IMG/VR virus record: IMGVR_UViG_3300046059_000016
Location: 1-46,493 of that record
Origin: a virus
Taxonomy: Duplodnaviria; Caudoviricetes
Length of the DNA stretch: 46,493 nucleotides
Direction: 5' to 3' (one strand)
The notes below the pieces were generated by a model. It was not told the DNA's origin, searched no databases, and saw nothing but the letters and a program-made list of their open reading frames with translations. How positions within the stretch are numbered: the stretch's first letter is position 1; each line of letters starts with the position of its first letter. This document shows, in pieces, positions 26,552 through 45,266 of this stretch. The translations under genes and the position numbers were made by a program.

Positions 26552-26553
26552 GT

Positions 26554-28378: not shown

Positions 28379-28388
28379 AGGATGTGCG

Positions 28389-28532
28389 TTACTGATCCTC
28401 GATGTTACTGGTGAAGATCGAACCAGCCATCCAGCCGAAGATCAGGCCGACAGCGAATCCGGCCACCAGGTAGTGGAATTCTTTGAACGTGGATGCGAAC
28501 TGCCCCAGCGCACGCCGGGGGGTGAACTTCAC
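28389..28532 (-). CDS. 47-aa membrane protein (not in ORF track)
   Basis: MKFTPRR...YLVAGFAVGLIFGWMAGSIF...; GTGA overlap. Confidence 0.7.
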   Translation of the reverse strand: MKFTPRRALGQFASTFKEFHYLVAGFAVGLIFGWMAGSIFTSNIEDQ

Positions 28533-28906
28533 TGCTGATCACTTTCGTCCGATTCTTCCTGTAGCCGCTGTTCGCCGGGTAGTTCGTAGTTATCAGCGAT
28601 CCTGGCGATGGCACGGATCAGCCCCTTGATGAATCCGATCCCCGTGATTCGAACCACCTGCACGAACGTGAATAGTGCGAACGTCGCCACGATGATCCCG
28701 GCCAGATAATCGATTACCCAGCCCAGGTTCGCCTGGAAGGTGAACGTGGCCTGTAGATCGATGATACCCAGCCAGATCGAGACAGCGAACCCCCCGATCA
28801 CCAGTGCCAGCAGCCCCACGAAATACGCATAGGCGAACGATACCTGCCAGGGCTTTCCCGGCTTCAGGGGCTGCAGGTTACTGCCGGGATCCTCGGATTC
28901 AGACAT
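28529..28906 (-). CDS. two-TM membrane protein (holin-like, speculative)
   Basis: Two long hydrophobic segments. Confidence 0.75.
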   Translation of the reverse strand: MSESEDPGSNLQPLKPGKPWQVSFAYAYFVGLLALVIGGFAVSIWLGIIDLQATFTFQANLGWVIDYLAGIIVATFALFTFVQVVRITGIGFIKGLIRAIARIADNYELPGEQRLQEESDESDQQ

Positions 28907-29363
28907 CCACGTTTACCCCCAGTTTCATCGCTGCTGAACGGATGCGGCTTTTGATGTTCCGCACCGCCTGATCATCCACGCCCGAACGTCCCGGATGGGA
29001 TTTCCCTTCATGGGCGTAGAAGATTTCCCTCGGTTCCAGTTCGCTGTGCTGCCACAGAATCCACACGATGGCTTCCTGGGCTGTAAGGCCCTTCCCCAGC
29101 AGATCGATGATGATCCCCGTATCGGTGAAGCCAGCGTCCCCCCGCTGCAGTTGGGTTAGGCAGTCGGACGTGCTGGGATCCTCGGGATCATCTATCCAGT
29201 CGGGCTGTTCCCGAATTATTTTCCTGGCTGCCCGATTCAGCACTTCCCGGCCACGCTTATCGAGGTACGGTTTCGTTCCAAACTTCTTCGCTGATCCAGG
29301 CGAAGAATCTGTTCCACCAGTTTCGGTTTCACCGTTCCGTTCCTGATCCATAGTGGACATCAT
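28899..29363 (-). CDS. putative HTH transcription regulator
   Basis: LTAQEAIVWIL...EPREI...QAVRNIKSRIRSAAMKL resembles a sigma-4/LuxR-like HTH; AT-rich upstream region. Confidence 0.6.
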   Translation of the reverse strand: MMSTMDQERNGETETGGTDSSPGSAKKFGTKPYLDKRGREVLNRAARKIIREQPDWIDDPEDPSTSDCLTQLQRGDAGFTDTGIIIDLLGKGLTAQEAIVWILWQHSELEPREIFYAHEGKSHPGRSGVDDQAVRNIKSRIRSAAMKLGVNVDV

Positions 29364-29469
29364 CGTATATGTCCGATTAAGCCACCATTAACCTTCGGGA
29401 AACCATAACGTATCCATTGCTTAACCATCACACATCCATTCCATAGGATTCTAATCGCATCTGGATACG

Positions 29470-30468
29470 TTACACACCAGCGCGTTCCAGGCGTTCGTTC
29501 AGCACCGTGGGATTGAATTCCTGATCTGCATCCAGCACCTTCGGCCTGAACCCGTTCGTTCCCCAGATGCGGTTCAGGTGATCTTCCCCGATTTCTTCCT
29601 CGGTGATCACGGATTCCCCGTCCGGCAGTTGTAGCAGTGGCCGAAGATCCGATCTGCACCACGGGTGATTCGGTGGCACCAGCCAGGGCTGTTCCACCAG
29701 ATCCACTGTTACTTCATTCAGCCGCCTGCATACGGTGCTGGTTTTCCGATCCACCACCGCATCGTAGGTGGCGTATCTGAACCCGTTATTCAGATACCTT
29801 CGGTGCGTGGCTGTAACGTATGCATCCTGCACCGAATCGTGGCTGATCAGTTCGGCCTTCGATTTCGCTGTTTGGCCACTGATCCCGTTCTGTTCCCTGG
29901 TATCTGCATCCGCATCCAGCAGCACCTGTTCCACCCGTGTGGACAGATCCATCTGATCATCCCGGTTCGAAACCACGGGTTCGTTCTTACTGAACCCGAT
30001 CTGGATCTGGCGGGTGGCCCGATCCCCGATTTCGCTGGCCAGGGAATCATCGTTTTCATACAGCAGTGCAGCATCGATGTTCCGAAGTTCGGCGTTCAAA
30101 GCCCGATCAGCGTGATCGAGGTTCGGGGATCCGATCAGATCCGATTCATCGAACTGGCCCGGAAGCGTTCGCTGCACCCTGCTGAAAGAAGCCCGTGCAG
30201 CCCGTGCCATCGTGGTTTTGTGGCGTTCTTCCAGCCAGTTCACCAGTTTCACCCGAAGTTCACGCGCTGCCAGGCGGGTGATCTGTTCGTTAATGCGCCT
30301 GGCCTTCGATCTGGGGCTGGCCGTGTTCCGCTGCAGGATCTGGATTCCCTCGCCCCGTAGGAAATCCTCGATCATTGACTGAAGATCACGAACCACCTGC
30401 CTGGAACGCTGCCTGGCACGCCGAAGATCCGTTCCGTTACTCGATGCTGGATCCCTGGCCGACATCAC
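29470..30468 (-). CDS. MuF / SPP1 gp7-like head morphogenesis protein
   Basis: AELISHD...YDAVVDRKTSTVCRRLN...PPNHPWCRS. Confidence 0.88.
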   Translation of the reverse strand: MMSARDPASSNGTDLRRARQRSRQVVRDLQSMIEDFLRGEGIQILQRNTASPRSKARRINEQITRLAARELRVKLVNWLEERHKTTMARAARASFSRVQRTLPGQFDESDLIGSPNLDHADRALNAELRNIDAALLYENDDSLASEIGDRATRQIQIGFSKNEPVVSNRDDQMDLSTRVEQVLLDADADTREQNGISGQTAKSKAELISHDSVQDAYVTATHRRYLNNGFRYATYDAVVDRKTSTVCRRLNEVTVDLVEQPWLVPPNHPWCRSDLRPLLQLPDGESVITEEEIGEDHLNRIWGTNGFRPKVLDADQEFNPTVLNERLERAGV

Positions 30469-30590
30469 TATTCACCAGCATCTTCCCCTTGTTCAGAACC
30501 GGCTTTTTTCCACAGTTCTCGCGTGGTTCTGGCGTTATCCTGTATGATCTGTTCAGCCTGTTCCGTGGGATCGAAATCTTCGCCGTTCAT
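30468..30590 (-). CDS. 40-aa acidic microprotein (not in ORF track)
   Basis: MNGEDFDPTEQAEQIIQDNARTTRELWKK...; coupled on both sides. Confidence 0.55.
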   Translation of the reverse strand: MNGEDFDPTEQAEQIIQDNARTTRELWKKAGSEQGEDAGE

Positions 30591-33500
30591 AGTTCTGGCC
30601 CGTCGTATTTCTGATAAACCTGTTCCACATCTTCGGGGATTTCATCACCCCGTAGTTTCATCGCCCCGATTTCAGCCACCGCTTCCAGCGGATTCGATGC
30701 TGCATACCTGCTTACCTGTTCTTCCATCAGTTCCTGTTCACCCCCGGTAAGTTCCGAAGCAGCCAGGCGTTCAGCCCGCCCAGTACCCGCCTGCCGGTAG
30801 TGTTCAGCATGAATTGTTTCGTGCCTGATCAGCGTGGCTAAATCGCCAGATACCCACTGGCCGCTGGATCGCATCGCCGTGGTATTTTCATCGGTATATC
30901 GCTGATCAAGCCACATCACGCCGGGACCGGGATCATATGTGGCAGCCGATGAATCGCCCGGATCCTGGCCAACACTGCCAGTGAACCTATCCACGTTTTC
31001 CAGCAGCCCCCGTTCTTCCAGTTCCTGAAAGGTAGACTGAATGGATTCAGACTGTGATTCATCGAACTGTTCCAGATCCATATCTGTGGATGGAGTGGTT
31101 CCCCCATCTTCATCCCCACCCGCCTCGGGTTTCTCGATGGCTTCCCTGGCCACTTCCATCAGATCATCTTCCATATCTATCTGAAGCCCCTGGGCTTTCT
31201 CGGTGAAATCAGGATCATCCTGGGCCACTTCACGAACTATATCTGCTGTATCCATCCCAGTAATTTCATCTGGAATTTCAAATGGCCGTTCCACGAATCT
31301 TCCATCAGGCCCCCGTGGATGGGCTGCTGGATTCCAGTCTGCCTGGATTTCCAGCAGGGTTTCGCTGCTGGATACGCCCCGGAACACAAGTTCACGCCAT
31401 AAGTTCTTCAGGCGTTCGTTAGGTGCCTCGGGGATGGTGGGGAGTTCTATCTGTTCGGCTGCACGAATGGGGTTAGATGCGGATCCCTTCCGCCAGCCTT
31501 CCCAGCCACCCAGCACCCGATCCTTCATGCTGGCACAGAATCGGTTCGCTGCCTGTTCGGACATACCCGAGGAAAGCATTTCACCCTTACAGCAGTCGCC
31601 CCCACAGTCGAACTGGCCGTTCATCCCCGCCCAGGCTTTCAGCAGGATCAGCCTGGCCGGTGTATCGCTTTCTTCCCAGGATTCAGGGTAACTGAATCGG
31701 CCATCACCACGGGCTGCCTCGATTAGTGCAGATGCGGCTTCATCGCCATCGCTGCCCAGTTCCCCTTCCGGGTTATCCACATCCGCATCGATCTGCCCCG
31801 ATCCCAGTTCATCTTCCCGATACACCCGAACGCCATCTTCCACGCCCACCACGTATGCTGGGTTATTGCTGGTGGCTTCCTCGGTGCCATCAGGCCCGTC
31901 GAATTCCTCGGTTCGAACTTCCACCACCACGCCCATCCCGCTGGGGGTGTCCACTTCCTGGCCTTCACTGAAGGAACCGGCAGCCTCGATGTCGGCCTGG
32001 CCGATGGGAACGTGGTTCGGTGAAAGACCGTGGTAGTCACAAGTGAATTCGTGGGGCGGGGTTTCGTTCACCAGTTCAGCACCTTCACCACACACCCAGC
32101 AGATCGGATCCCCATCCTGGCCTGCACGGATGGCACCCTGATCCGACAAATCAGCAGCGGCTTCCTCGATCCGCTGCCCATCAAGATCCACATCGCCATC
32201 CGAATCGAGGCTGGCCAGCACTTCCCGCCTGCTGATCCCGCTGGCTTCGGCTGAACCCTGGGGTTCATCCCCGCCATCACCCGCTTCAGGCCCCTGATCT
32301 GGCCGCATTTCCATCATATCCTGCATCGAGGCTTCCCGTTCCTCGGGATCCTCGGGGCCACCCTCGGGGGGCATGTTCTGGGTTTGATCCGTTTCCAGAT
32401 CCACCCCTTCCAGCACGTTCGCCAGTTCCCGGCTTTCGGCTTCGGACAGCCCCAGCAGCCCCGCAAAGTTCATTAGTTGGATGATTTCGGCTTCATCCTG
32501 GGCTTCGATGGCGGGCAGTTCGTGTTCCACTTCCCCGCTGATCCCGTGAATGTCGGCCTGGATAGCGCCGAACTGATCGAAGGTATCCGTTACCTGCCCC
32601 TGCCAGCCAGCCACCATATCCAGGAACATCTGCATCATGGTGTTCCTCGATAGTTCTGGGCCTTCTTTCAGTTCGATCAGATCCAGGGGCAGCAGCAGCC
32701 GCCTGCTGATCGCTTCATTATAGTCCCTGATCATCGAGGACATCGATTCATCCATTTCCGGCAGTTCGATGGTTTCCGTTTCCCAGTTCTCGGGGATGGA
32801 CATCACCGTAGCAGTCTGATAATCTTCCAGCGTTTCCAGGGCTGCATCGATCTGCTGGGCCATCACCAGTTCCAGCATCCGGCCAGAATCATCACCGAAA
32901 TCATCATCCTCGGATCGGACGTAATTCCCGTAATCTTCTTCATCCAGCCAGGCCGGGGGGTTCACTTTGATGATCACGCCACCGATACTGGCCAGTTCAG
33001 CCTTCCTGCCCTGTAGTCGCTTCAACTGCATCTTGTTCACGACATCATCAGCGACCGCCTGCAGCGGTGGGGTTCGATACAGCCGAACATCCACCACTTC
33101 CGTCCCGATTTCCAGGGCAGTGGAATCTTCCTTATGTTCCAGTTCCACCGAGGGTTCCCCGGTTTCTTCATCGATGTCGAAGGTGGTGTAGGATGTCGCA
33201 TCCTGGATGTAGATTTCATCACCCGTTTCGCCATCCTTCACGTAAGACAGATCAGCCACATCCAGGTGCTGCAGATCGGTGGATCGCCCCACGAACACCG
33301 CGTTCATCACGTTCTGTTCCAGGATCCGATCCATCACCTTCCCCGGATCCACATGCGTATCCAGATCAGCATCCCCGCCATACACCCGTTCCAGGTGATC
33401 GGCCAGTCGCTGATCCGCATCGGAATCTGGATCAGATGGCTTCACATCCAGCCCGTTCTGCCCCAGCATCAGCGATTTCAGCCGGATCAGGATCCCAGGG

Positions 33501-33901
33501 ATCAGATCATCGTTCGCCAGGATCCACTGGCCAGTTTGCTGGTTGTAATCCACCCGATTTTCCATCAGGTTCACTATCTGATCATCGAGGTAGGCTTTGT
33601 ATTCCCAGTTCGATAGATCGAAGGCAGAATCCGTGATGTGTATGTCGGTGCCACTGGCCACCGGGGTTACGGTGGTATCGCCACCGGCCTGGCCACGGAC
33701 ATCGATGCTGGATGCGTTTCCGTTCAGGGCTGCCTCGATCTGGGATGCATCCACATCCGTATCATCGGGCAGATCGATGGCGATCTGTTCCTGGCCTTCC
33801 ACCACTACCTGGCCACCATCCAGCCTGGTGGCTCGTTCCTCGGGATCAGTCGAACCGCTGCTGGAACCCAGCAGCGAACGGACAGACTCGGGGAGATCCA
33901 T
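30587..33901 (-). CDS. portal protein with multi-domain C-terminal extension ending in an HExxH peptidase-like domain
   Basis: N-terminal ~500 aa portal by synteny (between TerL and MuF); HETIH...VSRYA...EAVAE at C-terminus. Confidence 0.78.
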   Translation of the reverse strand: MDLPESVRSLLGSSSGSTDPEERATRLDGGQVVVEGQEQIAIDLPDDTDVDASQIEAALNGNASSIDVRGQAGGDTTVTPVASGTDIHITDSAFDLSNWEYKAYLDDQIVNLMENRVDYNQQTGQWILANDDLIPGILIRLKSLMLGQNGLDVKPSDPDSDADQRLADHLERVYGGDADLDTHVDPGKVMDRILEQNVMNAVFVGRSTDLQHLDVADLSYVKDGETGDEIYIQDATSYTTFDIDEETGEPSVELEHKEDSTALEIGTEVVDVRLYRTPPLQAVADDVVNKMQLKRLQGRKAELASIGGVIIKVNPPAWLDEEDYGNYVRSEDDDFGDDSGRMLELVMAQQIDAALETLEDYQTATVMSIPENWETETIELPEMDESMSSMIRDYNEAISRRLLLPLDLIELKEGPELSRNTMMQMFLDMVAGWQGQVTDTFDQFGAIQADIHGISGEVEHELPAIEAQDEAEIIQLMNFAGLLGLSEAESRELANVLEGVDLETDQTQNMPPEGGPEDPEEREASMQDMMEMRPDQGPEAGDGGDEPQGSAEASGISRREVLASLDSDGDVDLDGQRIEEAAADLSDQGAIRAGQDGDPICWVCGEGAELVNETPPHEFTCDYHGLSPNHVPIGQADIEAAGSFSEGQEVDTPSGMGVVVEVRTEEFDGPDGTEEATSNNPAYVVGVEDGVRVYREDELGSGQIDADVDNPEGELGSDGDEAASALIEAARGDGRFSYPESWEESDTPARLILLKAWAGMNGQFDCGGDCCKGEMLSSGMSEQAANRFCASMKDRVLGGWEGWRKGSASNPIRAAEQIELPTIPEAPNERLKNLWRELVFRGVSSSETLLEIQADWNPAAHPRGPDGRFVERPFEIPDEITGMDTADIVREVAQDDPDFTEKAQGLQIDMEDDLMEVAREAIEKPEAGGDEDGGTTPSTDMDLEQFDESQSESIQSTFQELEERGLLENVDRFTGSVGQDPGDSSAATYDPGPGVMWLDQRYTDENTTAMRSSGQWVSGDLATLIRHETIHAEHYRQAGTGRAERLAASELTGGEQELMEEQVSRYAASNPLEAVAEIGAMKLRGDEIPEDVEQVYQKYDGPEL

Positions 33902-33925
33902 ACCGCATACCTGCCTTCAAAACGG

Positions 33926-33946
33926 CTTAAACACGCATCCCGCTGG
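33926..33946 (-). promoter_or_regulatory. Late-type promoter
   Basis: CCAGCGGGATGC-GTG-TTTAAG, 24 nt from portal ATG. Confidence 0.78.
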
Positions 33947-33948
33947 AT

Positions 33949-34134
33949 TCAGTCGGGCTGATCCCCGGAACCCGCATCAGCATCACCATCGAACCCCGCC
34001 ACTTCCACCCAGTAGGTAGACCGAATCCAGCGGCCATCCGGCTGCTGTCCATCAAAAATGATGAACGTGAACCCATGCCAGTAGCCTTCATATCGGTCGT
34101 AATCCCTATCAGCCAGATCATCAGTATCGGCCAC
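33949..34134 (-). CDS. small acidic hypothetical protein
   Basis: 61 aa, halophile-like composition. Confidence 0.6.
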   Translation of the reverse strand: MADTDDLADRDYDRYEGYWHGFTFIIFDGQQPDGRWIRSTYWVEVAGFDGDADAGSGDQPD

Positions 34135-34224
34135 ATGTATCTAAAAGGGAACACATGGGAAGTACCATCCACCCGCTGGATCCCCCGGTGGCCAGCATCC
34201 AGATCAGCCTTTCCGTGTGGTAGA

Positions 34225-35562
34225 TTAGCGGTCCACGGCCATCCCGTAATCCAGCACGTTCAGGCTGATGTTATCCGTGTTCGAAGCCTGGGCGAACAGC
34301 ACCAGGTAATCCAGATCTGCTAACTGCACGTTCGCATCCAGCCCCGTGGCTTCACCAGCCGCGTTCACACCCGATCCACCCAGCAGGGAACGGCCAGCGA
34401 TCTTCCGACCCACCGGGTATCCCTCGGTTCCCACATGTGGATCATTATTCCCGGTCCCCGCTGCATCGAAGCGGGTTACGCTGCTGATGTTCTGCCAGGT
34501 GGTATCTTCGAAGAACGCTTCCCTGGTATCCAGGCCAGGCGGTGGCCCCATATCCACATCTGGCCCATTAACGAACGTCACATCCGATTTCCGCATCATG
34601 TAGGCTGTAACCTGAACATCATCGGCAGATGGCGTGGCCGTGATGCTTTCCAGCGTCATGGGAACATCCCGATCCGTGGTGCGAACAGCGATCAGGGGGT
34701 ACGGCTGGGCCTGGGTGATGTTCCCGCCACCGATGCTGCCGGTGCGTTCCACATCCTTATACCGGGGTTCGGAATCGTTTTGGCCCAGGATATTGTAATG
34801 AACGTTCCCGAAGCGAAGCGTGTTCGCACTGGCGTTCGGCCCGATGTTTTCCAGTTCGCACCGCATCCTGAAGTTCACGTTATTCGTGGCTGTCTCGGAA
34901 ACCGGCGAAAGACGGTTCAGCGATAGGGTTTCCTTCGAAACATCTGGATCAGGGTTCTGAGATAGATCGATGATGCTGTTCGCATCATCCAGCAGATCAG
35001 GCACCTGTATTTCCGGCTTCCATTCACCAAAATCGTACCAGCCCAGTTCGTTCCGAACGATGGCCCCCACCGTTTCATCCCAGCCGATGGATCGAGGATC
35101 CCCATTCCAGGAATCCCAGTGAACTTCTATGTTCTTCGATCCGCCTTTGATGATCTGAAGGTAGTGATCTGAATCGCCATCACCTGCCGTTCCCAGGATT
35201 TCCCACCGATACGAATCCTGCCAGGTGGGATCTGTAGTTACACCCATCCGAAGCCGCTGATCCTCGGATAGCAGATTATCGGCCAGAAACGCCCACCCGA
35301 ACAGGCAGGCCATCGAAGGGACGTACCCCGACCGATCCGCTGTGCGAAGCACGGCCAGATCCCCATCCGAGGCACCCACGGACAGTTCGTATAACCCGCC
35401 ATTCCCAGGATCCACGCTTCCCCCGCCGGATTCAGTCACATCCCAGTTCGTTTTATCGATGTTTCCCCAGCCCGTGCTGATCGAATACCAGGGATCAGCC
35501 TGCACTACTTCCTGCTGTCGGAACTGGGTGGTTCGAAAGCGTTTGTTCGATGATCGCGCCAT
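34225..35562 (-). CDS. putative virion protein (beta-rich)
   Basis: 445 aa, between TerL and portal, has own late promoter. Confidence 0.75.
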   Translation of the reverse strand: MARSSNKRFRTTQFRQQEVVQADPWYSISTGWGNIDKTNWDVTESGGGSVDPGNGGLYELSVGASDGDLAVLRTADRSGYVPSMACLFGWAFLADNLLSEDQRLRMGVTTDPTWQDSYRWEILGTAGDGDSDHYLQIIKGGSKNIEVHWDSWNGDPRSIGWDETVGAIVRNELGWYDFGEWKPEIQVPDLLDDANSIIDLSQNPDPDVSKETLSLNRLSPVSETATNNVNFRMRCELENIGPNASANTLRFGNVHYNILGQNDSEPRYKDVERTGSIGGGNITQAQPYPLIAVRTTDRDVPMTLESITATPSADDVQVTAYMMRKSDVTFVNGPDVDMGPPPGLDTREAFFEDTTWQNISSVTRFDAAGTGNNDPHVGTEGYPVGRKIAGRSLLGGSGVNAAGEATGLDANVQLADLDYLVLFAQASNTDNISLNVLDYGMAVDR

Positions 35563-35585
35563 ACCGCATTATCTGAATCAGGCCA

Positions 35586-35606
35586 GATAAGGAAGCATCC
35601 CGCTGG
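35586..35606 (-). promoter_or_regulatory. Late-type promoter
   Basis: CCAGCGGGATGC-TTC-CTTATC, 23 nt from ATG 35562. Confidence 0.75.
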
Positions 35607-35607
35607 T

Positions 35608-37473
35608 TCAGGCGGTGCCACCCCGGATGTTCATTGGCTCGTAGCCACCCCGCTTCCCACCGAGGCAGGCGGCAGTGTAGGCATACAGCAGCGCGTAGAA
35701 TCCATCATCTTTCTGGTTCGACTGGAACGTGGTGATTCGTTCCTTCCGGTTCCCTGATTTCAGTTCCTCGAATTTACGCTTAATCGAGGTTAGGTGATCG
35801 AACCAGTAGTTCATTGTATCCCGCGTTTCCACTTCATCCTGATACGGGATGCGAATCCGCTTATCTGGCGTTCTGGATAGATCGTAGCCCCCTTCCACGC
35901 TGTCCGGCGTTTCATCGTAGCCCTGCACCTCGGGGAACAGATCGAACACCCGGTTCGCCCACGGTGCCTGGGCAGCGTGAACCGTCTTTCCATCCCGCTT
36001 CAGGAACGGCCACTTCCCATCGGTATCGTTCGTGGCCGACAGATCGAACCGATGGCCGGAAACGTGGCTGCCCCAGCCGCGTTCCGGGATCGGGTTATCC
36101 CGCTTATCGCCGTTCTGTAATGCATCCACATGTGCAGTTCCATAGCCCAGATCTGCCATCCCCCGGCCATCCCGACCGATCTGGAAGCGATCCAGCACCT
36201 GGGCTGCCTTCCGTAGTTCCTCGGTTCGGTGTTCATACTCGATGCGTTCGACGTTCCTGATGGTGATCCCCTTCGGCCAGTGGTCCTTATTCCGTTCATC
36301 CACGGTGCAGATCACCACGATGGTATCAGCCGACTCGCCACCGCCCCAGTCGATCCCGGCGTAATATGGCCCGTAGCCTTCCACAGCCCGGGCCTGCAGT
36401 CCGATTTGATCATCACACACGCTGTAAATGGCTGCCTCGGGGATCGGCTTCGCCCCACCGCTGTAGAACTGGGCCAGTTTGAATCGGTAGAATTCCCCCT
36501 TCGACGTGCTGGCCAGTTCCCTGGATCGCATCACTTCATCCAGCGGGTGGCGGGGGCTGATCAACTGGTTCAGCGTATAGCCTCGATGCACACCCTCGGG
36601 GTTCGTCGCCCGCCAGAACCCATCCAGTCGGATCCGTTCCTGATCCAGTTCGGCCTGGCACTGTCGGCAGAACAGCCCCCACCGCTTCGGGTTCGTATCG
36701 ATCACCTGTACGGAATCCAGCGTGATGGTTTGATCCGTGCTACAGTCGGGGCAGGTGTGGTGCCACATGTGCTGGGTGGATTCCTGCCAGTGTTCGTGAT
36801 ACACCGTTCCTTCATAATCCGGGGTTCCGGTAAGCAGCACCCTGGCCAGCCCCGAATCGATGGCTTCCTTCAGGTTCGACAGGGCTGCAGTTGTCCAATT
36901 CTGGGCTTCATCTGCCGTTCCGAACTGGCCGTGGAATCCCTGAATCGAGCGGCCATCACCCCAGGCTGATCGGCCTTCCAGGAACGATCCCGTTCTGAAC
37001 TTGTTCCGCTTCACGGCCACCCGGTTATCTTCCAGCATCGCTTCCAGGATCGGGGGATCCCCTCGGGATGTCTCTATCATCCGGGCCATCGTTCGCTTCA
37101 TGTAGGAATTCAGTTGATCCGAACGTGGCACCGTGTGGATGATGTCGTGCATCTGCCGGGTGGTGGGGATATGCGCTTCCACGATGCTGCTTTGCACCGT
37201 TTTCCCCTGGCCACGCGCCATCTTCCAGATGTGGATGCGTTCCGTATCGGGATCCACGACAGCCCGAAGCGGTTCCTTCCAGTATCGGTAATCCCCCTGG
37301 TAATCCACCCGCGTTCCGTTAATCTTCACCAGCGATTCAGCCCACTGGATTATATCATCCCGTGCCTGTTCCAGTTCCTCGGTCGGGATCGCACCTTCAC
37401 TTTCACTTTCAGTCCGGGGGCTACCGGCTGAATCTTCCTCGATGAAACTGGTATCGATACCGCCCGACATCAT
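35608..37473 (-). CDS. terL: terminase large subunit (GpA-like, with Zn-finger insert)
   Basis: Walker A ARGQGKT, Walker B TADEA, LTGTP, CPDC/CRQC, nuclease AGIDWG and DDGFYA. Confidence 0.92.
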   Translation of the reverse strand: MMSGGIDTSFIEEDSAGSPRTESESEGAIPTEELEQARDDIIQWAESLVKINGTRVDYQGDYRYWKEPLRAVVDPDTERIHIWKMARGQGKTVQSSIVEAHIPTTRQMHDIIHTVPRSDQLNSYMKRTMARMIETSRGDPPILEAMLEDNRVAVKRNKFRTGSFLEGRSAWGDGRSIQGFHGQFGTADEAQNWTTAALSNLKEAIDSGLARVLLTGTPDYEGTVYHEHWQESTQHMWHHTCPDCSTDQTITLDSVQVIDTNPKRWGLFCRQCQAELDQERIRLDGFWRATNPEGVHRGYTLNQLISPRHPLDEVMRSRELASTSKGEFYRFKLAQFYSGGAKPIPEAAIYSVCDDQIGLQARAVEGYGPYYAGIDWGGGESADTIVVICTVDERNKDHWPKGITIRNVERIEYEHRTEELRKAAQVLDRFQIGRDGRGMADLGYGTAHVDALQNGDKRDNPIPERGWGSHVSGHRFDLSATNDTDGKWPFLKRDGKTVHAAQAPWANRVFDLFPEVQGYDETPDSVEGGYDLSRTPDKRIRIPYQDEVETRDTMNYWFDHLTSIKRKFEELKSGNRKERITTFQSNQKDDGFYALLYAYTAACLGGKRGGYEPMNIRGGTA

Positions 37474-37853
37474 GGCACCCCACGATGGTGTTCACACCCG
37501 CTGGTGTCGGTGCTACATCCAGCCAGATCACAGCCGTAGCACAGCCCCTGGCGGGTGGTGTTGCCGACATCCGACCCACAGCACCCACACGTCCCCGAAC
37601 CGAAATCCACGGCCTTCACTGGCCTGGAATCGGGTGCTGTAGATGGTTCGGGAAGGGTGGCAGCCTCGGGGTCGGGATCCGGTGCCTGCTGCAGCCGCTG
37701 ATCCTGATCATCCATGTCTGCTGTCTCGGAATCTGCATCCGCTTCGGCTTCCTCGATTACCTGGGGGCAGGTGGCTTCATGGCGATCCCGATCACCCCGC
37801 TGTAGGAACGGCTTCCCACAGCCACGGCAGGGCCAGGTGTTTCGATCACCCAT
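37470..37853 (-). CDS. Zn-finger protein (start MGDRNTW)
   Basis: CRGC...HEATC and C-terminal CGCC/CYGC. Confidence 0.7.
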   Translation of the reverse strand: MGDRNTWPCRGCGKPFLQRGDRDRHEATCPQVIEEAEADADSETADMDDQDQRLQQAPDPDPEAATLPEPSTAPDSRPVKAVDFGSGTCGCCGSDVGNTTRQGLCYGCDLAGCSTDTSGCEHHRGVP

Positions 37854-38532
37854 CCCCGCCATCCGGCTGCAGTGGTTCAGAAACGCCCATCCCTTCAGCG
37901 ACATCCCGAAGCCGGGTGCTGCCATCGATCAGCGAATCATGGGCCTGGTGCAGCCCAGCACTGTGCAGCAGCCCCTGCACCGCCCCCACAGCCGATTCCG
38001 GGATGATCATCGGTTCCTCGGATGCGGGCTGGCCTTCCTCGGGGTAGCCCGCATCCAGGCCGAATTCGATCAGGCGATAGCCACGGGGGGCTTCTTCCAG
38101 GATGTAGATCCGGCTGCTTTCTGAATCAGGATCGGCTGCCGTGATCGCTGCATCCAGATCCACATCATGGACATCTGCCGCTGCCTCGATCAGTTCCTGG
38201 GTGGTGTGTCCCTCGGGATCTGCATCAGCCTCGGGATCTGGCCCCACTTCATCCAGCCGCTGATCGGTGTCTTCCCAGGTGAACTGGGTTACATCGAAGT
38301 AATCCTGGCAGGATGCACAGAACGTTTTCCCATACTGATGTGGATTCCTGGCGAACGATTCAGCCAGATCAGCACCCATCGTGGTGGATTCACCGCACCC
38401 ATCCGTGTGGATATAGGTGGATCGCACCGGCTGCACGAATTCACCCTGATCCGTGGTAGGGTGTCGTTCGAGCTGGCCATCTTCACGCCGATCCCCGTAA
38501 TCGAAATCCTCGGGGGGCGGGCTGTCGGACAT
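37846..38532 (-). CDS. hypothetical Zn-binding protein (start MSDSPP)
   Basis: YIHTDGCG...TFCASC. Confidence 0.75.
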   Translation of the reverse strand: MSDSPPPEDFDYGDRREDGQLERHPTTDQGEFVQPVRSTYIHTDGCGESTTMGADLAESFARNPHQYGKTFCASCQDYFDVTQFTWEDTDQRLDEVGPDPEADADPEGHTTQELIEAAADVHDVDLDAAITAADPDSESSRIYILEEAPRGYRLIEFGLDAGYPEEGQPASEEPMIIPESAVGAVQGLLHSAGLHQAHDSLIDGSTRLRDVAEGMGVSEPLQPDGGDG

Positions 38533-38693
38533 CACGCACCCCCCAGTTCCTTCAGGCACAGCCCCGTGCTGGGATCGCATCCCTCGGTTTCACAGTCGCT
38601 GCACAGCCTCGATCCTTTCCGCTGCATCCGGTCGCCACAGCAGCGGCAGTCCGTTGCTTTCGCATCCACATCCGCTTCTACTGTTTTGTTCAT
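38532..38693 (-). CDS. 53-aa Cys-rich microprotein (not in ORF track)
   Basis: CRCC...CSDC...C...C; TGATG overlap. Confidence 0.7.
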   Translation of the reverse strand: MNKTVEADVDAKATDCRCCGDRMQRKGSRLCSDCETEGCDPSTGLCLKELGGA

Positions 38694-38781
38694 TTCTGTA
38701 GTGTATCGATTACCGTTCGTTCACCAGCGATCCGTTTTCTAACGATCCACGTTCCCGTTAGATTACCTTCCGTATTTCTGT

Positions 38782-39129
38782 TCATGTGTTCTGTTCCACC
38801 TGGCGGTGACAGGGGGCACACAGTGCCTGCAGATTATCCAGGCTGTTTGCTGCCTGCCTCGATTCGAATTCCTTAGCCTTCACCTGGTGATGAACGTGAA
38901 GCCCGCCATCTGGTGGGAACAGATCATCACGTTCCTGGTGTTCCTGGTGACTGATCCCGCACCGCTGGCACTGGTTATCATCCCGTTCCAGCACCCGCTG
39001 CCGGATTGATTCCCAGTCGGTTCCGTAGTAACCCGTATATCGGTCTTTGTGGCCACTGTATTCTGGATCAGGATCGGCTTCCTGATCCTCGGGTTCCTCG
39101 GTGGCGTAGTAATCTGTAGGCAGTGGCAT
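38782..39129 (-). CDS. HNH endonuclease (packaging-associated position)
   Basis: W..IRQRVLERD..CQRCG...LHVHH...NLQALCAPCH, next to TerS. Confidence 0.9.
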   Translation of the reverse strand: MPLPTDYYATEEPEDQEADPDPEYSGHKDRYTGYYGTDWESIRQRVLERDDNQCQRCGISHQEHQERDDLFPPDGGLHVHHQVKAKEFESRQAANSLDNLQALCAPCHRQVEQNT

Positions 39130-39134
39130 GGGGG

Positions 39135-39833
39135 TCAGTCACCCTGAACCAGTGCATCCAGATTATCGTGGCCGGATCCGCCACCGCCGTGCTGGGCTGA
39201 ATTCCCTTCGTAGTGCAGCCCCAGCCGGATTTCTCGGAAGAACCCCTGCAGCGCCTGCAGATCTTCCTTCTTGAACTGCTGATACGGATCACCCTGATCC
39301 GTATATACGGTGCGTTCCAGCCCATCTTCGAACAGATCGGCCAGAATATCGATCCGAAGCACGGCTGCAGCGGCCATCGCCATCGCCTGGCTTTCGTTCA
39401 TCGTTCCGTCCCGGTATTCCAGAAAGCGGTGTTTGAATTCATCCTGCTGCCGTTCGTTCATCACTTCCAGCAGCCGTTCAGCCGTCATGTGCAGCCCGTG
39501 CTTCATCGCGTTCGTATTCCCCTCGGGTGGCCCACCGCCTGGGTTCCCTTCAGCGAACGAATTCCCTTCAGGCGCACCCCTCGATTCCGGGATGTTCCCT
39601 TCCTCGGGTGGATGCTGGTAGCAGTATGATCCCGGTTCTTCCTGGGAAACCACCTGCAGGCACGGATCGCCATCTTCCTTCAGGTAGCCACACCGGGGGC
39701 GTTCCTCGGAATCCTCGGGTGGGTGGTGGTGGCACAGATCCCCTGGTTCGCCCACCCGCTGCTGGCAGGGGTGATCCATCGATTCCGTGAAATACCCGCA
39801 TCTGGCGGTTTCATCGCCTGATTCCGTTCCCAT
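39135..39833 (-). CDS. terS: terminase small subunit
   Basis: GAPEGN...GNTNAMKHGL motif, two N-terminal RCGY..C..C..H repeats, first gene of packaging module. Confidence 0.78.
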   Translation of the reverse strand: MGTESGDETARCGYFTESMDHPCQQRVGEPGDLCHHHPPEDSEERPRCGYLKEDGDPCLQVVSQEEPGSYCYQHPPEEGNIPESRGAPEGNSFAEGNPGGGPPEGNTNAMKHGLHMTAERLLEVMNERQQDEFKHRFLEYRDGTMNESQAMAMAAAAVLRIDILADLFEDGLERTVYTDQGDPYQQFKKEDLQALQGFFREIRLGLHYEGNSAQHGGGGSGHDNLDALVQGD

Positions 39834-39855
39834 ATGCTGCTAAGTGTTCGTGCCA

Positions 39856-39880
39856 GATATATAGGAACGCATCACGCTGG
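39856..39880 (-). promoter_or_regulatory. Late-type promoter
   Basis: CCAGCGTGATGC-GTT-CCTATATA upstream of TerS ATG. Confidence 0.78.
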
Positions 39881-40385
39881 TTTCGAAACGGGAAGGAAAT
39901 CCACTGGGTGTGGGGTTCGTGTTGTTTGTGGTGCTGCTGGAAGCGTGCAGCGGCGTGTGGTCGTGATCGAGACTGTCCGGGTGATGGGGCCTGTAGAAGT
40001 GGATCGGCTTCAGCGGCTGCACAGCGGTTGCTGTGGTGTCTGGAAAACCTGGGCAGGGTGGATCATGCCCCACCTAGTGGAACGGTTCTGGAAAGTGGAT
40101 CAGGCTGTGTGGCTTCCCAGTGGAACGGTGCTGCCTGGATCTGGATGCAGCGGTGGGTTCAAAGTCGGGCTGCTTCTTTGTTATGTGCCTGCTAAGGATT
40201 CGTAGTGGGTAATTACTCGGGGTTTAATCGCTGCTTCAGGTGGTGGGTGGGCGTTCCGCTGGCTGTCGGTATCGGTGTTTGGGTGCTGCCTGAAATGCAA
40301 AGTAGCCCCCAGCGGCCTTTCCAGGGGGTGAAGCCTGGATCAGCCGCTGGGGGCAGTGTGTGCGTGTTCCTCGATGGAACGGTGT

Positions 40386-40667
40386 TCAGGTTGTGGTGAT
40401 GGCCTGGATGTCGGCTTCGATGTGTTCCCGCTGTTCCGTGATGATCACCATCAGTGTCTGCTGGCCGGTGATCAGGCAGTCTTTGCTGCAGTATAGGTTC
40501 CCGAAGGGATCGGATTCCCTCGGTGATCCGGTGGGGATGTCGGTTTCGCACATGCAGCAGGCTGCCTTCATCCAGTCGGCTTCCCCGTGCAAATCCAGTG
40601 GGCAGTGCCACGGGTGGATGTGGCGAACCTGCCCACACGAACTGCATCTGGGGGCGTTTTCGAACAT
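40386..40667 (-). CDS. Cys-rich Zn-finger protein
   Basis: CSSC, CCMC, YCSKDC. Confidence 0.7.
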   Translation of the reverse strand: MFENAPRCSSCGQVRHIHPWHCPLDLHGEADWMKAACCMCETDIPTGSPRESDPFGNLYCSKDCLITGQQTLMVIITEQREHIEADIQAITTT

Positions 40668-40668
40668 C

Positions 40669-40983
40669 CTACCAGCCGATCACCACCACTGGCGTGTTCG
40701 GGGTGATGTCGGTGTCTGGGTAGTATTCGGCCAGTTCTTCCTGCAGTCGGTGAAACGTGGCGTATTCTCGGTGGCCTTCGAACTGCCACGATGGGATGAA
40801 CCCTGCAGGCACTGTGGCGTTCAGCCGGGTGGTGGCCGTGGTGATCTGTTCTCGATCATCATCTACCAGTTCCAGTGGATCGCCAGGTTCGGGATCGTAT
40901 CCTGGATTCAGCCGGATAGTGAACTGTTTCCGGCCTGCCTCGATTTCTTCGGTGAACCTCGGGTGAAATGGGATCTGTATCAC
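40669..40983 (-). CDS. ASCH-domain protein
   Basis: IPF...EEIEAGRKQFTIR...PGD signature. Confidence 0.85.
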   Translation of the reverse strand: MIQIPFHPRFTEEIEAGRKQFTIRLNPGYDPEPGDPLELVDDDREQITTATTRLNATVPAGFIPSWQFEGHREYATFHRLQEELAEYYPDTDITPNTPVVVIGW

Positions 40984-41150
40984 CGTTTCACCATCGCACC
41001 TTCCTTCAAATCGGATTCACTGATCAGTTCCATTTCCACCGCATCATCCCCGTGGATGCAGTGCAGTTGGGGCGGAACCTGGAACGCACCAGCAGTGGTG
41101 CTGTTCGTGCCTATTTCCTTCCCACATCTGGGGCATTTGTGAAGGGACAT
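40980..41150 (-). CDS. 56-aa CPxCG microprotein (not in ORF track)
   Basis: MSLHKCPRCGKEIG...HCIH; coupled to ASCH gene. Confidence 0.7.
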   Translation of the reverse strand: MSLHKCPRCGKEIGTNSTTAGAFQVPPQLHCIHGDDAVEMELISESDLKEGAMVKR

Positions 41151-41153
41151 GGT

Positions 41154-41961
41154 TCATGTCACCCGGTAGGCACCATCACGGGGCATGTAGATTTCACCGC
41201 GTTTCTTCAGTTTCTCGATCTGGGATTCCACCTGTTCGGGGCTGCCTGCCCCCATCTTCACGGCTTCCTGAACGACTGAACCGTGGGGTGCCATCTGTTC
41301 ATCGTGCTGTTCCTCGATCCGTTCCACTGCTTCTTTCGTTTGTATCATGCGTTCGCGCTGGGGTGGATCCTGATCCGCTTCAGAATCCGCTGTGCTGCTG
41401 CCTGATCCGTTCTTCTTCGATTCGATGCGTTCCACCTGGATGTTCGAAAACACCAGCGACTGGCCCAGGCTGGTGCGCTGTGCTGTATCTGGCCGAAGGG
41501 TGTGATCGATGGCGTGCCAGTTCCCGATTAGTGCATCCACGGCTGCAGCCGACAGTGGCCGGTGGAAGTAAACGTGGAATTCCTCGGTTCGCGGTTCGTG
41601 AACCACGAATATGTAACCGCCATCGTGATCCAGTAGTTCCTGGTGTGCGTAATCCCAGATCTGGAAGCGGCCACGGGATCCGTTCCCGTTATAGTAGATC
41701 TGGCAGGATTTGATTTCGATGGGCGTTCCCGTTATAGTAGATCTGGCAGGATTTGATTTCGATGGGCGTTCCCGTTCGGGGATCCACCGCATCGTGGGCT
41801 GATTCCGGGCAGATGGCTGAATCCTGGGGATCCAGATCGTAATGATCACGAACCCACTGTTCAGCGTCGTTCCCGTTCTGTTTCGATCCGGTGGACAGTT
41901 CGCCTGGGTATTCCTCGGGATCGAAGCCGGTGGCTTGTTCGGCTTCAGAATCAGAACCCAT
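41154..41961 (-). pseudogene. PD-(D/E)xK nuclease with C-terminal MCM-type winged helix, frameshifted by a 43-bp duplication
   Basis: Removing one repeat copy gives a 254-aa ORF with E..HDA..EIK core and IEKLKKRGEIYMPRDG tail. Confidence 0.8.
41681..41776. repeat. 43-bp tandem duplication with 10-bp CGTTCCCGTT microhomology
   Basis: Exact copies at 41681-41723 and 41724-41766, plus a partial third copy. Confidence 0.95.
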
Positions 41962-41964
41962 GCA

Positions 41965-42243
41965 GATCACCGTGTGCGTTCGGAAGCCGGGGCATGGCCA
42001 GGAACACCCTGGCTGCCTCGGATTCCCCTACGTGATAGGCCCTACAACCAGATGCGTTTCCGCACCTGCCCAGGCAGGCCGTTCCCGTGGGGATCAGACA
42101 CTGATCCCGCTGGGCGTTCGCCGTGGGTTCGACGTATCGATACCTTCCCGCGTTCCGACAGCCGAAGTGGATCCTGGCGTTAGAGTCTCGATCACCCCCG
42201 TTCAGTCGCGTGGGTATGGTAACATCGTTCGCCACACGATACA
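41965..42243 (-). ncRNA. Candidate structured RNA / 5' leader of nuclease gene
   Basis: Multiple hairpins, GAAA tetraloop, 5'/3' closing stem, promoter-like motif at 42267-42287. Confidence 0.55.
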
Positions 42244-42295
42244 CCCTGGTAGTAGTTGGCATGTATCTTGAAGCATCATCACGCTGGTTTATCTA

Positions 42296-42529
42296 TCACT
42301 GATCACCGGAATGAATACCCAGTGTCTGTGCTTCCTCGGGGGTGATCACTGGATCACTGTCGGGGAGCGGTTCCCCATCGGCAGCGGGGAACTGTCCGGG
42401 TGGCAGATGATCGGGGCAGCCGAACACCTTCCGATCTATTCCACCACCGAATTCGATGTCCACCAGGGCCACTGCATCCCTGGTATCGTAGGCTGCACCA
42501 CACCAGTCGCACTGAAACAGTCTACCCAT
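42296..42529 (-). CDS. Zn-finger microprotein
   Basis: CDWC...CPDH. Confidence 0.72.
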   Translation of the reverse strand: MGRLFQCDWCGAAYDTRDAVALVDIEFGGGIDRKVFGCPDHLPPGQFPAADGEPLPDSDPVITPEEAQTLGIHSGDQ

Positions 42530-42535
42530 CGAGGA

Positions 42536-43060
42536 TCACCGTAGCCCTTCGAGGAACTGCAGCAGTGCTTCGCGCTGTTCGGAATCCCGAGGCAGATCCA
42601 CGGTGAATTCCAGTTCCAGCGTGGCTTCTTCGCGGTGGGGTTCGAAATCATCCACCGACTGGGCGTGATCGTTCGGCTTCCAGGTTAAATCGAAATCCTG
42701 GATGTGGATCCGATCACCGGCCACCTGCACGTATGGCCTGCTGTCGGCTGCCCCGATGTAGGCCGTGAACCCTGGCGGGAACGTGATTTCATCATCTTCC
42801 TGGATGAACGCACCGTTCGAAGCCAGGTGATGTTCGACATCCATCCAGGCGGTGCGTTCCTCGGAACTGTCGGCTTCCATCGAACGCTTCCTGGCCCACG
42901 CCAGTAGGCCCTGCACCAGTTCACCTTCCCGGTATCCGTTCCGATAGCCCAGCAGGAACGCCTGTTCCTGGATGTTCTGGGTTAGTTCCTGCAGGCGATC
43001 ATCGAACTGTTCCTGTTCCGGCGTGGCCGGGGGCAGCCCGTCGCCTGGCAGTTCGGACAT
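42536..43060 (-). CDS. hypothetical protein
   Basis: Acidic 174-aa ORF. Confidence 0.78.
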   Translation of the reverse strand: MSELPGDGLPPATPEQEQFDDRLQELTQNIQEQAFLLGYRNGYREGELVQGLLAWARKRSMEADSSEERTAWMDVEHHLASNGAFIQEDDEITFPPGFTAYIGAADSRPYVQVAGDRIHIQDFDLTWKPNDHAQSVDDFEPHREEATLELEFTVDLPRDSEQREALLQFLEGLR

Positions 43061-43644
43061 CAGAATAGCACCTCGATTTCTTCGGCTGGTTCATCGCTGA
43101 AGATGTCGTTCACCAGGTGGAACAGCATGTGCATCTGGTTCAGACAGCGGCCTTTACCACCCTGGATGGTGGTATCGAGGATCAGCAGGGGAACGTATCC
43201 CCCTTCCCTCGGAACGCCGAACATCTGGCCGATGATCACGGGATCCTGTTCGATCTGGGCCAGTAGATCCAGCGGGATCATCGCCAGGCCCACGCTTTCG
43301 AACGTCATGGGGTGCAGCCGTTCAGCGAACCGCTTCACTGTCGCTGGCTGCACCTGCCGGATGTAGGAATCCTGCAGGCTGTCGGGGCCACCGATGCTGC
43401 CACCCTCGGGAACAGCCTGCTGGCCCAGTTCAGCCCACACTGATCTGGCCTTTCGGTAGATGTCTGCCTCGATGGTGCTGTTTTCCAGGATCCACTGATC
43501 CACGGGTTCTTTGATGTAATCCACCAGTTCAGTGTTCGGCTGGCTGTGGGGATCACACGGTTCATACGATTCATCTGCCACTTCGAAGGGGTTCTTTGCG
43601 TTCATGCCTGATCCGTTAGTAGTAATCCGCTGGGTTCGCTTCAC
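43060..43644 (-). CDS. hypothetical protein
   Basis: Acidic ORF; start uncertain. Confidence 0.75.
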   Translation of the reverse strand: MKRTQRITTNGSGMNAKNPFEVADESYEPCDPHSQPNTELVDYIKEPVDQWILENSTIEADIYRKARSVWAELGQQAVPEGGSIGGPDSLQDSYIRQVQPATVKRFAERLHPMTFESVGLAMIPLDLLAQIEQDPVIIGQMFGVPREGGYVPLLILDTTIQGGKGRCLNQMHMLFHLVNDIFSDEPAEEIEVLF

Positions 43645-44134
43645 CGTTCGACAGTAGGTGATCGATGCGTTTCTGGATCCTCGATCTGATCTGTTCGCCT
43701 GCAGCCTCGGGATCCATCCCGGCGTGCAGGCGATACACCAGATACAGACTGATCACATGGCCGTGGCACAGTTTCGGAAGGCACCAGCAGGCGATGGGCT
43801 TCCCGTAGCAGGAAAGCACCGTATCCTGGATTCCTTCATCTTCCTGCACAGCCTCGATCAGCGTATCAGTGTATTTCAGCAGGCTGTCCTTCCTGGCGTG
43901 TTCCGATACCGGATGTGGGTTCGCCAGCCGGGATCGATCCATTCCGTAATGGCTGTTTTCCCTGCCGATGTAGATGGCTGGGCCTTCTTTCACATCCTGG
44001 AAGCCCGTGGGTTTCCCGTTCAGCAGCACCACGGATTCCGTTTCCTGGCGGTGTTCCTCGGATGCGGCCAGATCCCAGCCATCGATCCGGTGCTTCCAGT
44101 TCTGAATCAGATCCGGTTCTGGTGTGGTGGACAT
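43616..44134 (-). CDS. DUF4326-domain protein
   Basis: YIGR...S.LANP...GKPIACWC.P..CHGHVI. Confidence 0.85.
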   Translation of the reverse strand: MSTTPEPDLIQNWKHRIDGWDLAASEEHRQETESVVLLNGKPTGFQDVKEGPAIYIGRENSHYGMDRSRLANPHPVSEHARKDSLLKYTDTLIEAVQEDEGIQDTVLSCYGKPIACWCLPKLCHGHVISLYLVYRLHAGMDPEAAGEQIRSRIQKRIDHLLSNGEANPADYY

Positions 44135-44136
44135 GA

Positions 44137-44358
44137 TTACGGCCATTTCCCCAGCCCGTAAGCGGCCAGAATGATGCTGATACTGCCGATCAGTATCAGA
44201 ACCCACACGCCGATCATCACGATGAAGAAGCCCTGGGGATCTGGCGTATGCCACCCGAGGATGATCAGCAGTGCTGCCACCAGCATCGTGATGATCAGGT
44301 ATGCTGCTTTCAGAATGTCGGTGATGAACGCCATGCCACCGATTTCAGGATATGACAT
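44137..44358 (-). CDS. two-TM membrane protein
   Basis: Two hydrophobic segments. Confidence 0.72.
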   Translation of the reverse strand: MSYPEIGGMAFITDILKAAYLIITMLVAALLIILGWHTPDPQGFFIVMIGVWVLILIGSISIILAAYGLGKWP

Positions 44359-44770
44359 CTTCTAACACCATCCCGCTGGTTTCCTCGGTGATCTTCCAGT
44401 GCTTCCCCGTATCGATCAGATCCTGAATGTGGAAGAATTCGTGATCACCCTGCTGGTGCTTCCACTTCACAGCGATCAGGCCGGTTCCACCCGTGATTTC
44501 CTCAATGCGTTTCAGCATCTGCCGTTCTTCATCGAGGATCTGGCAGGTGGCTGGCTGAACGTGTTTTTCCTCGATCAGCAGCACCTGGCTGATGTGGCCT
44601 TCATACTGGCTAATCAGGGGATCAGCACGGATAGCCACGATGTCGGCCTGATCGATGTATTCCTCGGTTTTCGGATCCAGAATACCGTGGCCGCTGCTGG
44701 GGGCTTTCTGGGTGTAGAATTCGGCCTGGTGCAGCGCCTGCTGCAGTTTCCGTTCGCTGTAGTTAGACAT
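44345..44770 (-). CDS. hjc: Holliday junction resolvase, Hjc-like
   Basis: ERKL...APSSG...ADIVA...LIEEK archaeal Hjc motifs. Confidence 0.8.
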   Translation of the reverse strand: MSNYSERKLQQALHQAEFYTQKAPSSGHGILDPKTEEYIDQADIVAIRADPLISQYEGHISQVLLIEEKHVQPATCQILDEERQMLKRIEEITGGTGLIAVKWKHQQGDHEFFHIQDLIDTGKHWKITEETSGMVLEDVIS

Positions 44771-45266
44771 GCCCATCACCACCGAAATACCGATCTGCAG
44801 CCTGCTGGCCGGTGGGATCCGGCGGTTCCACCCTGGGGGTAGCCTCGCCATCAGCGTATCCCCGAAGGCTGCAGGCGTATTCCCTCGGTAGGTTCAGCCA
44901 GCGTTCACCGCGTGCCTGGCGTTCTTCCTCTTTTGCCTCGGATTCACCGTGATCCAGGAACGCCTGGGGGTGGAACACCATCGCTTCCTTCAGTGGCCGA
45001 TCATCGAAATACACCAGGATCAGCCTCGATTCCCCGTCACCGATCCGGGGGATCTTCTTCATCACCCCGATGGTTTCCGGTTCATCCGGCAGGTAACTGA
45101 AGCCCGTAAGCACGAACTTCACCCGATCTTCGGGATTCACCTGCAGGATGGCACGGTATCCGATCTGCTTTCCCGTGCCAGTTTTATCGATCACTGAACC
45201 CTGGATTCTGCATCCGGGGCGATTCTTTACCAGTCGCTTTAGGTTCGACAGAACCGTTCCAGTCAT
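44763..45266 (-). CDS. hypothetical protein
   Basis: 167-aa ORF coupled to hjc; overlaps upstream gene by 83 nt. Confidence 0.7.
   Translation of the reverse strand: MTGTVLSNLKRLVKNRPGCRIQGSVIDKTGTGKQIGYRAILQVNPEDRVKFVLTGFSYLPDEPETIGVMKKIPRIGDGESRLILVYFDDRPLKEAMVFHPQAFLDHGESEAKEEERQARGERWLNLPREYACSLRGYADGEATPRVEPPDPTGQQAADRYFGGDGHV

Follow-up and report, generated by a model that had tools for sequence, protein, structure and literature searches.

The described systems closest in their workings to the locus reported here are the leader-ORF couplings of plasmid Rep genes and their like, such as the repY/repZ pseudoknot of ColIb-P9, tap/repA of R1 and hok/mok. In these systems the leader is structured, an upstream ORF probably matters through its translation and not through its product, and the stop of that ORF adjoins the controlled gene. 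PMC4288162 treats repY, which lies upstream of repZ, as a small regulator (see also references cited in PMC4705826). The present locus differs from the Rep leaders in that it belongs to an archaeal virus, has a frame of 95-115 codons and precedes a nuclease as the gene presumed to be controlled. In addition, the switch proposed below would be an internal promoter that drops the ATG of the upstream frame, and no antisense RNA was found at this locus.

Other systems resemble the locus in layout. In RCd22/AbiF, according to PMC12373285, a conserved ncRNA lies directly upstream of a putatively toxic viral nuclease and acts both in cis and by binding the toxin. The RNA described here is laid out in the same way, yet it falls outside the type III toxin-antitoxin systems, the RNA-guided systems and all Rfam families. 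Unlike in AbiF/RCd22 and the type III systems, neither tandem repeats (none occur in the RNA alignment) nor a ToxN/AbiF-type protein were found, and the adjoining protein has a PD-(D/E)xK DNase fold and is not Cas13-related; as to RNA-guided nucleases, there is no RuvC/HNH effector, the modelled protein having a PD-(D/E)xK restriction fold. As with the lambda pR' 6S and StxS RNAs (PMC7547250), the locus has a late promoter in front of late genes from which an RNA some hundreds of bases long would be made. In contrast to these, no terminator or antiterminator was found here, each late block has a promoter of its own, and the RNA has a covarying, multi-helix fold.

On the protein side, the nuclease domain matches the BisI family (NhoI, Eco15I) at 12-18% identity, and the order of a PD-(D/E)xK domain followed by a C-terminal winged helix is common to DpnI and the viral nuclease. 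Here, however, the winged helix is an archaeal MCM-type one, and the putative likeness to methylation-dependent enzymes is one of modelled fold. The literature consulted describes no RNA like this one for BisI-family or DpnI enzymes. Homologous nuclease domains are also found in the PDDEXK_16 proteins of pleolipoviruses, SNJ2 and HHIV-2, most of which are 120-170 aa long and lack a winged helix; in the proviral copies a TATA precedes the ATG by about 25 nt, and nothing matches the RNA. Pleolipovirus-like proviruses (L080, L083-L086, L089-L095; ~1215-1400) carry, between an ATPase-like gene and the PDDEXK_16 gene, a conserved 160-nt gap containing an inverted repeat with GCCCA and then a TATA. 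This tract is possibly an origin or nick site; the GCCCA is presumably linked to HRPV-3.

The window, that is, the whole stretch of 46,493 nucleotides analysed, encodes acidic proteins, has terminase, tail tube, PCNA and Hjc matches, and matches HHTV-1 at 65% (protein) and 71% (DNA), which by sequence places it among the HHTV-1-like haloviruses (Madisaviridae). The locus consists of the HHTV-1 gene 72 orthologue together with the DNA preceding it, where the HHTV-1 annotation has gene 71, a 53-aa hypothetical in a frame differing from that of the ORF discussed below. Thirty-two close nuclease proteins were collected; the DNA alignment was restricted to five loci, namely the window, HHTV-1 (L006) and viral loci L001, L003 and L004. 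In the window and all four relatives the RNA element directly precedes the same gene for a PD-(D/E)xK nuclease with an MCM-type winged helix. A sixth locus (P0022/P0185) is compatible with the element, as judged from a back-translated, mis-called N-terminal extension (p 0.005-0.01 for the core block, no significance for the P6 block). The genes flanking the RNA-nuclease unit are often swapped between loci: methyltransferase genes flank it at L006 3576-4175 (HHTV-1 annotation) and L004 1-250 (by eye), and are not found beside it in the window and L001. The coordinates of the features in the window are given in Table 1.

Table 1. Features of the RNA-nuclease locus, in coordinates of the window
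Feature	Position	Strand	Remarks
Viral promoter box and TATA-like hexamer	42267..42290	-	kept in 5/5 loci; late class inferred
Open frame, 94-115 codons	41951..42262	-	invariant ATG 20 nt upstream of RNA start
Inferred transcription start	42242	-	G at box+45 in 5/5 loci, no start codon
Conserved non-coding RNA element	41962..42242	-	272-309 nt in five loci; no Rfam match
5' segment	42165..42242	-	conserved sequence blocks; conserved fold not significant
P3 stem	42130..42164	-	14-nt loop invariant in 4/5; weak support (78% of cells paired, 2 double changes)
P4 domain	42069..42127	-	outer stem, internal loop, inner stem with CAGUGU loop
P5 hairpin	42049..42068	-	hairpin in 5/5 loci at 40% mean identity
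Conserved linker	42038..42048	-	invariant unpaired motif after P5
P6 two-part hairpin	41987..42021	-	last conserved helix
SD-like GGUGAU	41966..41971	-	GGUG(A/G)U 4-12 nt before nuclease ATG in 5/5
PDDEXK_16 (PF25941) nuclease, acidic linker and haloarchaeal-MCM-type winged helix	41154..41961	-	orthologue of HHTV-1 gene 72
43-nt tandem duplication	41681..41776	-	frameshifts the window's nuclease copy

Some further features of the genome were seen outside this locus. The window has an extreme word bias (GATC 774 against 172 expected, AGCT 4, CTAG 1), and its relatives are similar. Both contig ends (1-50 and 46440-46493) carry GC-rich hairpins that recall what we take to be IS200/IS605 ends, so the record may have been broken at an IS200/IS605-like element. 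Two plus-strand ORFs are inserted into the tail module, at 19524-20123 (conserved in three relatives) and 20444-20944 (HNH-like by eye); the gap at 19400-21200 was ruled out as a second ncRNA, its conserved part matching a plus-strand ORF. One contig of RNA run X17 skips 1023 nt where the portal gene ends (window 30466-31490), and probably comes from a relative with a shorter gene.

The first-pass annotation had proposed that a structured RNA with a promoter-like motif of its own lies directly ahead of the nuclease gene, and this proposal is supported by the presence of the element in all five loci, by covariation and by the spacing of the promoter box. The strings it quoted were found where it had put them: the box at 42287-42267, hairpins at 42108-42090, 42068-42049 and 42013-41997, the 5' octamer at 42240-42233, its partner at 41976-41969 and the SD at 41971-41966. 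The five RNAs have a mean identity of 64%. Taken alone, the RNA of the window has a fold barely better than that expected by chance (z -1.95, equalled by 10 of 200 shuffles), and support for the fold comes from comparison among loci. The consensus fold of the 3' half (~140 nt) has a z of -3.49, with none of 100 column shuffles as good, against -0.45 for the 5' half (122 columns) and -1.55 for the full alignment (7/100 shuffles). Taken one sequence at a time, z ranges from -2.4 to -6.0 for P5, -2.3 to -3.2 for P6 and -1.2 to -2.3 for P4, with nothing for P3. In the named structure 87% of cells are paired and 15 of 43 pairs are changed on both sides (0/500 shuffles; 1-3 in slid controls), a test that leans in favour, since the structure was drawn from the same five sequences, with helix limits set after inspection of the alignment and the window's P5 misaligned in the named-pair test. 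Compensatory base changes thus go beyond the controls, as is characteristic of a structured ncRNA, among five sequences. By energy, the reverse strand folds equally well (-65.0 vs -61.5).

All four pairs of the P4 inner stem are changed on both sides, and the CAGUGU loop that caps it, at 42103-42098, is invariant. The GAAA loop of P5 occurs in the window only among the five loci. The 3' end of the linker may pair with 42081-42077, in the P4 junction, as a pseudoknot, for which there are one-sided changes only and a competing pairing. Between the RNA and the nuclease ATG the alignment holds no conserved terminator. Rfam 15 gave no match in the window at gathering score, and with E allowed to reach 10 the matches in this region and in three homolog loci stayed at chance level; apparent likenesses to cobalamin, ZTP, pistol, HDV and tRNA T-arm motifs had no Rfam or ARAGORN support. 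We regard the element as a real, new, conserved and predicted-folded viral RNA motif. A second folded region, at ~8085-8562 on the minus strand (~480 nt, with stops in six frames and hairpins of variable sequence), is shared with HHTV-1 and two relatives, has consensus-fold z of -1.9 to -8.6 in six windows and no Rfam match, and is a strong candidate for a separate ornate ncRNA.

The box at 42287-42267 is a degenerate copy of a motif that occurs nine times in the window (12643, 19398, 22278, 28365, 33946, 35606, 39880 and 44379 on the minus strand, 36717 on the plus strand), with 31 occurrences across five genomes or contigs. Throughout the family it has a partly palindromic core followed by a TATA-like hexamer, mostly with leaderless genes at +44 to +47, and it implies a putative viral activator. 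Since the other copies mostly precede structural (portal, scaffold/capsid, tail) and packaging genes, the class is presumed to be late. An ATG lies 44-47 nt downstream of the box in 18 of 26 copies elsewhere, against none of the five copies at the RNA locus. This spacing agrees with the start without a start codon predicted by the first-pass annotation, and would put it at 42242 (box+45) instead of 42243. P6 was considered as a promoter-box lookalike and dropped; three-mismatch matches also occur inside genes, and no TATA follows P6.

A 260-nt contig from an RNA library (run X3) spans 42242-41986, with three unmatched letters at the 42242 end, and stops one base past the last conserved helix. 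The contigs of run X4 are identical, and the two runs were counted as one data set. Another of the seven X3 contigs on 24900-44899 ends at 28319, at box+46 of the 28365 copy, again with three unmatched letters. Because these are contigs of low depth (about 3-6), from which start and strand are unprovable, the end at 42242 is a hint that agrees with the box spacing rule and weakly suggests a transcript start there. Another RNA contig, which like that on 42242-41986 has a depth under 4, begins 2 nt ahead of the nuclease ATG; none bridges RNA and nuclease and none covers the ATG of the overlapping frame, gaps that prove nothing.

That overlapping frame, an ORF of 103 aa in the window, had been set aside as basic and unlike the other proteins. 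It is indeed basic (pI 9.3; D+E 0.08, against mostly 0.13-0.31 in the acidic genes) and not conserved as a protein. Its pN/pS is 0.81-1.46 (55 codons), compared with 0.32-0.51 for the nuclease; its variation by codon position is flat (0.67/0.67/0.65, against 0.37/0.25/0.59 in the nuclease), and its last quarter is read in differing frames at different loci. No called homolog was present among 237 candidates, the structure atlas gave no match, and the protein-likeness score was low. The frame is kept open, however, which the first-pass annotation did not foresee. Up to P6 it has no stops in five sequences where 6.4 are expected (P=0.0012 by column permutation; 6e-4 under a star-tree null), while the remaining five frames have the expected stop counts (P 0.43-0.89). 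It is thus open in all five loci without protein-level selection, as in leader-ORF coupling, and we refer to it as a filler frame. Its stop lies at -10, +5, +5, +8 and +16 relative to the nuclease ATG in the five loci. This position is partly automatic, the SD itself containing TGA; for each of the other frames, 24-28% of 25 window genes show a stop within 17 nt. The 19-nt overlap of filler frame and nuclease in L004 is long.

The window's nuclease copy is frameshifted, and without the duplication its frame would have 254 aa, the repaired length given by the first-pass annotation. A DNA contig of 98-99% identity lacks the duplication, as do three cluster members whose proteins are intact at 254 aa; it is thus an assembly slip or a private lesion. 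PF25941 was found in 31 of 32 homologs, and the E..D..ExK catalytic-type set (E33, D56, E67, K69) is invariant in 28. The model of the L001 orthologue (pLDDT 80) has a restriction-type PD-(D/E)xK fold; its nuclease domain best matches Eco15I/NhoI (Foldseek E 8e-4; for NhoI, Z 11.4, rmsd 2.8, 112 aligned) and its winged helix archaeal MCM (Z 11.9, rmsd 1.7). Winged-helix profile matches occur in 400 of 401 Halobacteria genomes, those inspected being MCM. The winged helices of archaeal MCM may bind Orc1, for which a literature search gave no confirmation. The viral nuclease is acidic (pI 4.6-5.2), and the model contains no extra RNA-binding domain. We infer an active DNase whose target would be host or rival DNA. 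The literature search found no paper on PF25941, PDDEXK_16 or HHTV1_72.

The reading that we favour, and to which we give somewhat less than an even chance, is that the RNA is a two-start switch for the downstream nuclease gene. On long transcripts, supplied for example by read-through from the box at 44379, ribosomes would translate the filler frame through the RNA, unfolding it, stop beside the SD and then reinitiate at the nuclease. The promoter at 42287 would instead start a transcript 20 nt past the filler ATG and so give a folded, untranslated RNA; lacking this ATG, the short RNA would be unable to translate the frame, and it would yield little or no nuclease. Translation of leadered mRNAs in haloarchaea can dispense with an SD, which counts against such a switch, and the invariant loops and ornate fold exceed the needs of a passive one. 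In Haloferax volcanii, according to PMC6728339, SD sequences are non-functional for de novo initiation in 5' UTRs and are used in termination-reinitiation. A comparable case (PMC12542753) is halovirus HFTV1, in which an internal promoter leaves an overlapped ORF untranslatable. No route by which the filler frame would itself be initiated was found at the locus. In four loci the filler ATG lies about 26-33 nt beyond the stop of the upstream gene, and in L001 3 nt beyond it; a gap of ~20 nt nearly abolishes translational coupling (PMC10666635), and no convincing TATA lies 27 nt upstream of the filler ATG, all of which argues against filler-frame initiation.

The switch differs from the repression originally envisaged, in which the 5' end of the RNA would pair with the SD. 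This pairing is present in the minimum-energy fold of the window and is not conserved among the relatives: the duplex has -12.5 kcal/mol in the window as against -3.6 to -5.6 in the four others. Predicted partners of the SD differ among loci, none being conserved, and in four of five loci the nuclease start is no more occluded than with shuffled leaders. Occlusion of the SD by the leader is therefore unsupported.

Further copies of the RNA were sought in several searches. Two scans of viral contigs with RNA-body motifs and one with the promoter pattern returned the four known loci only as real copies; in the viral-contig scans, chance accounted for 4 of 7 and for 87 of 89 stretches. Among metagenome contigs the motif turned up in 11 stretches, not one of which carried the nuclease or the complete element, and nuclease scans made with the close alignment confirmed none of 173 metagenome and none of 224 genome-contig stretches. 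The RNA model was absent from 151 Halobacteria genomes (with no positive control among them), from five further whole-genome scans, from 23 cellular or proviral homolog loci and from the HRPV-11, SNJ2 and HHIV-2 loci. Matches to a 58-nt model in L024-L027 were rejected as an echo of the search pattern. Within the genomes and contigs scanned, the RNA thus appears to have no copy outside the five loci.

That the RNA was never seen apart from the nuclease gene in these scans, even though the flanking genes are swapped, tells against its being an independent late viral ncRNA of ~257 nt that acts in trans, on host machinery, packaging or transcription, with the nuclease a mere neighbour and the frame open only to keep that gene translatable. 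The absence of a conserved terminator before the ATG is likewise against it. We nevertheless allow this reading a minor but real share, because the RNA has its own promoter, one RNA contig extends from that promoter's predicted start as far as 41986 and the next begins near the nuclease ATG, the same viruses keep the second, larger conserved folded region (~8562-8085) without a nuclease, the invariant loops suggest a binding partner, and relatives of the nuclease work without the RNA.

Two readings join the RNA and the protein physically. According to the first, which we think unlikely, they form a ribonucleoprotein: a pseudoknotted late-start RNA with invariant loops would hold the restriction-fold DNase inactive or aim it, the MCM-type winged helix would dock on host replication machinery, and the long transcript would give the enzyme and the short one its RNA partner. 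Slightly less likely again is a short RNA that binds and neutralises the nuclease as an RNA antitoxin, by type III or AbiF-like logic. The constant linkage of RNA and nuclease fits such an antitoxin, as does the order of ncRNA and nuclease in RCd22/AbiF (PMC12373285), but the RNA motif is not repeated, the protein is an acidic DNase of restriction fold with no added RNA-binding domain, and nuclease relatives lacking the RNA exist.

A further, doubtful reading takes the ORF for a genuine gene of a basic peptide (an inhibitor, for instance) that evolves fast and is coupled to the nuclease, with the fold a secondary structure of its mRNA. A pN/pS near 1, the tail in differing frames, the lack of a called protein among the 237 candidates and the low protein-likeness score oppose it, and the strong covariation would need a separate cause; its invariant ATG, its open state in 5/5 loci and its coupled stop are as a peptide would have them, and small basic proteins do occur in haloarchaeal elements (PMC5974055).

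The two remaining readings are very improbable. That the hairpins act as DNA, be it as a cruciform, as an origin or as the place where the neighbouring nuclease with its MCM-type winged helix cuts, would suit the equally good fold of the reverse strand and the different inverted-repeat tract that pleolipovirus proviruses carry upstream of their nuclease gene, and is opposed by the fixed promoter spacing, the RNA contig from the predicted start and one-sided changes that keep G-U on the transcribed strand. Equally improbable is guidance of the nuclease to DNA targets in an OMEGA/HEARO-like manner, which had been raised at first: the RNA adjoins a nuclease and has, between conserved blocks, a poorly conserved 17-20-nt segment of near-constant length (35% identity), yet the variable segments are alignable homologues and not swapped spacers, self-genome matches reach 14 nt against shuffled maxima of 9-16 with inconsistent strand and place, and the protein is small, acidic and of restriction fold. 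The expected covarying RNA upstream of nuclease homologs was thus present in five loci, and the swapped variable segment was not; neither was a spacer-like segment with a target in the viruses' own genomes, and the nuclease relatives of pleolipovirus proviruses have no such RNA.

The passages and abstracts consulted of PMC5974055, PMC10599561, PMC3950731, PMC8651126, PMC11037411, PMC12542753, PMC4288162, PMC6728339, PMC10666635, PMC12373285, PMC4705826, PMC11347163, PMC10101028 and PMC7547250 do not describe the element. The contig identifiers were unmatched in six of the nine supplementary files of the IMG/VR candidate-RNA catalogue (PMC10690425), and the element may be listed in files 1, 2 or 4.

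Since HHTV-1 carries the RNA and is in culture as a virus of Haloarcula hispanica, direct testing is feasible. To our knowledge, the structured RNAs of archaeal viruses are barely characterised. If the nuclease does bind the RNA, the locus would represent a new RNA-nuclease pairing. If the two-start switch is correct, these haloviruses would time a dangerous enzyme by moving the start of transcription past the ATG of a filler frame, and would thereby exploit the fact that haloarchaea reserve internal SD sites for reinitiation.
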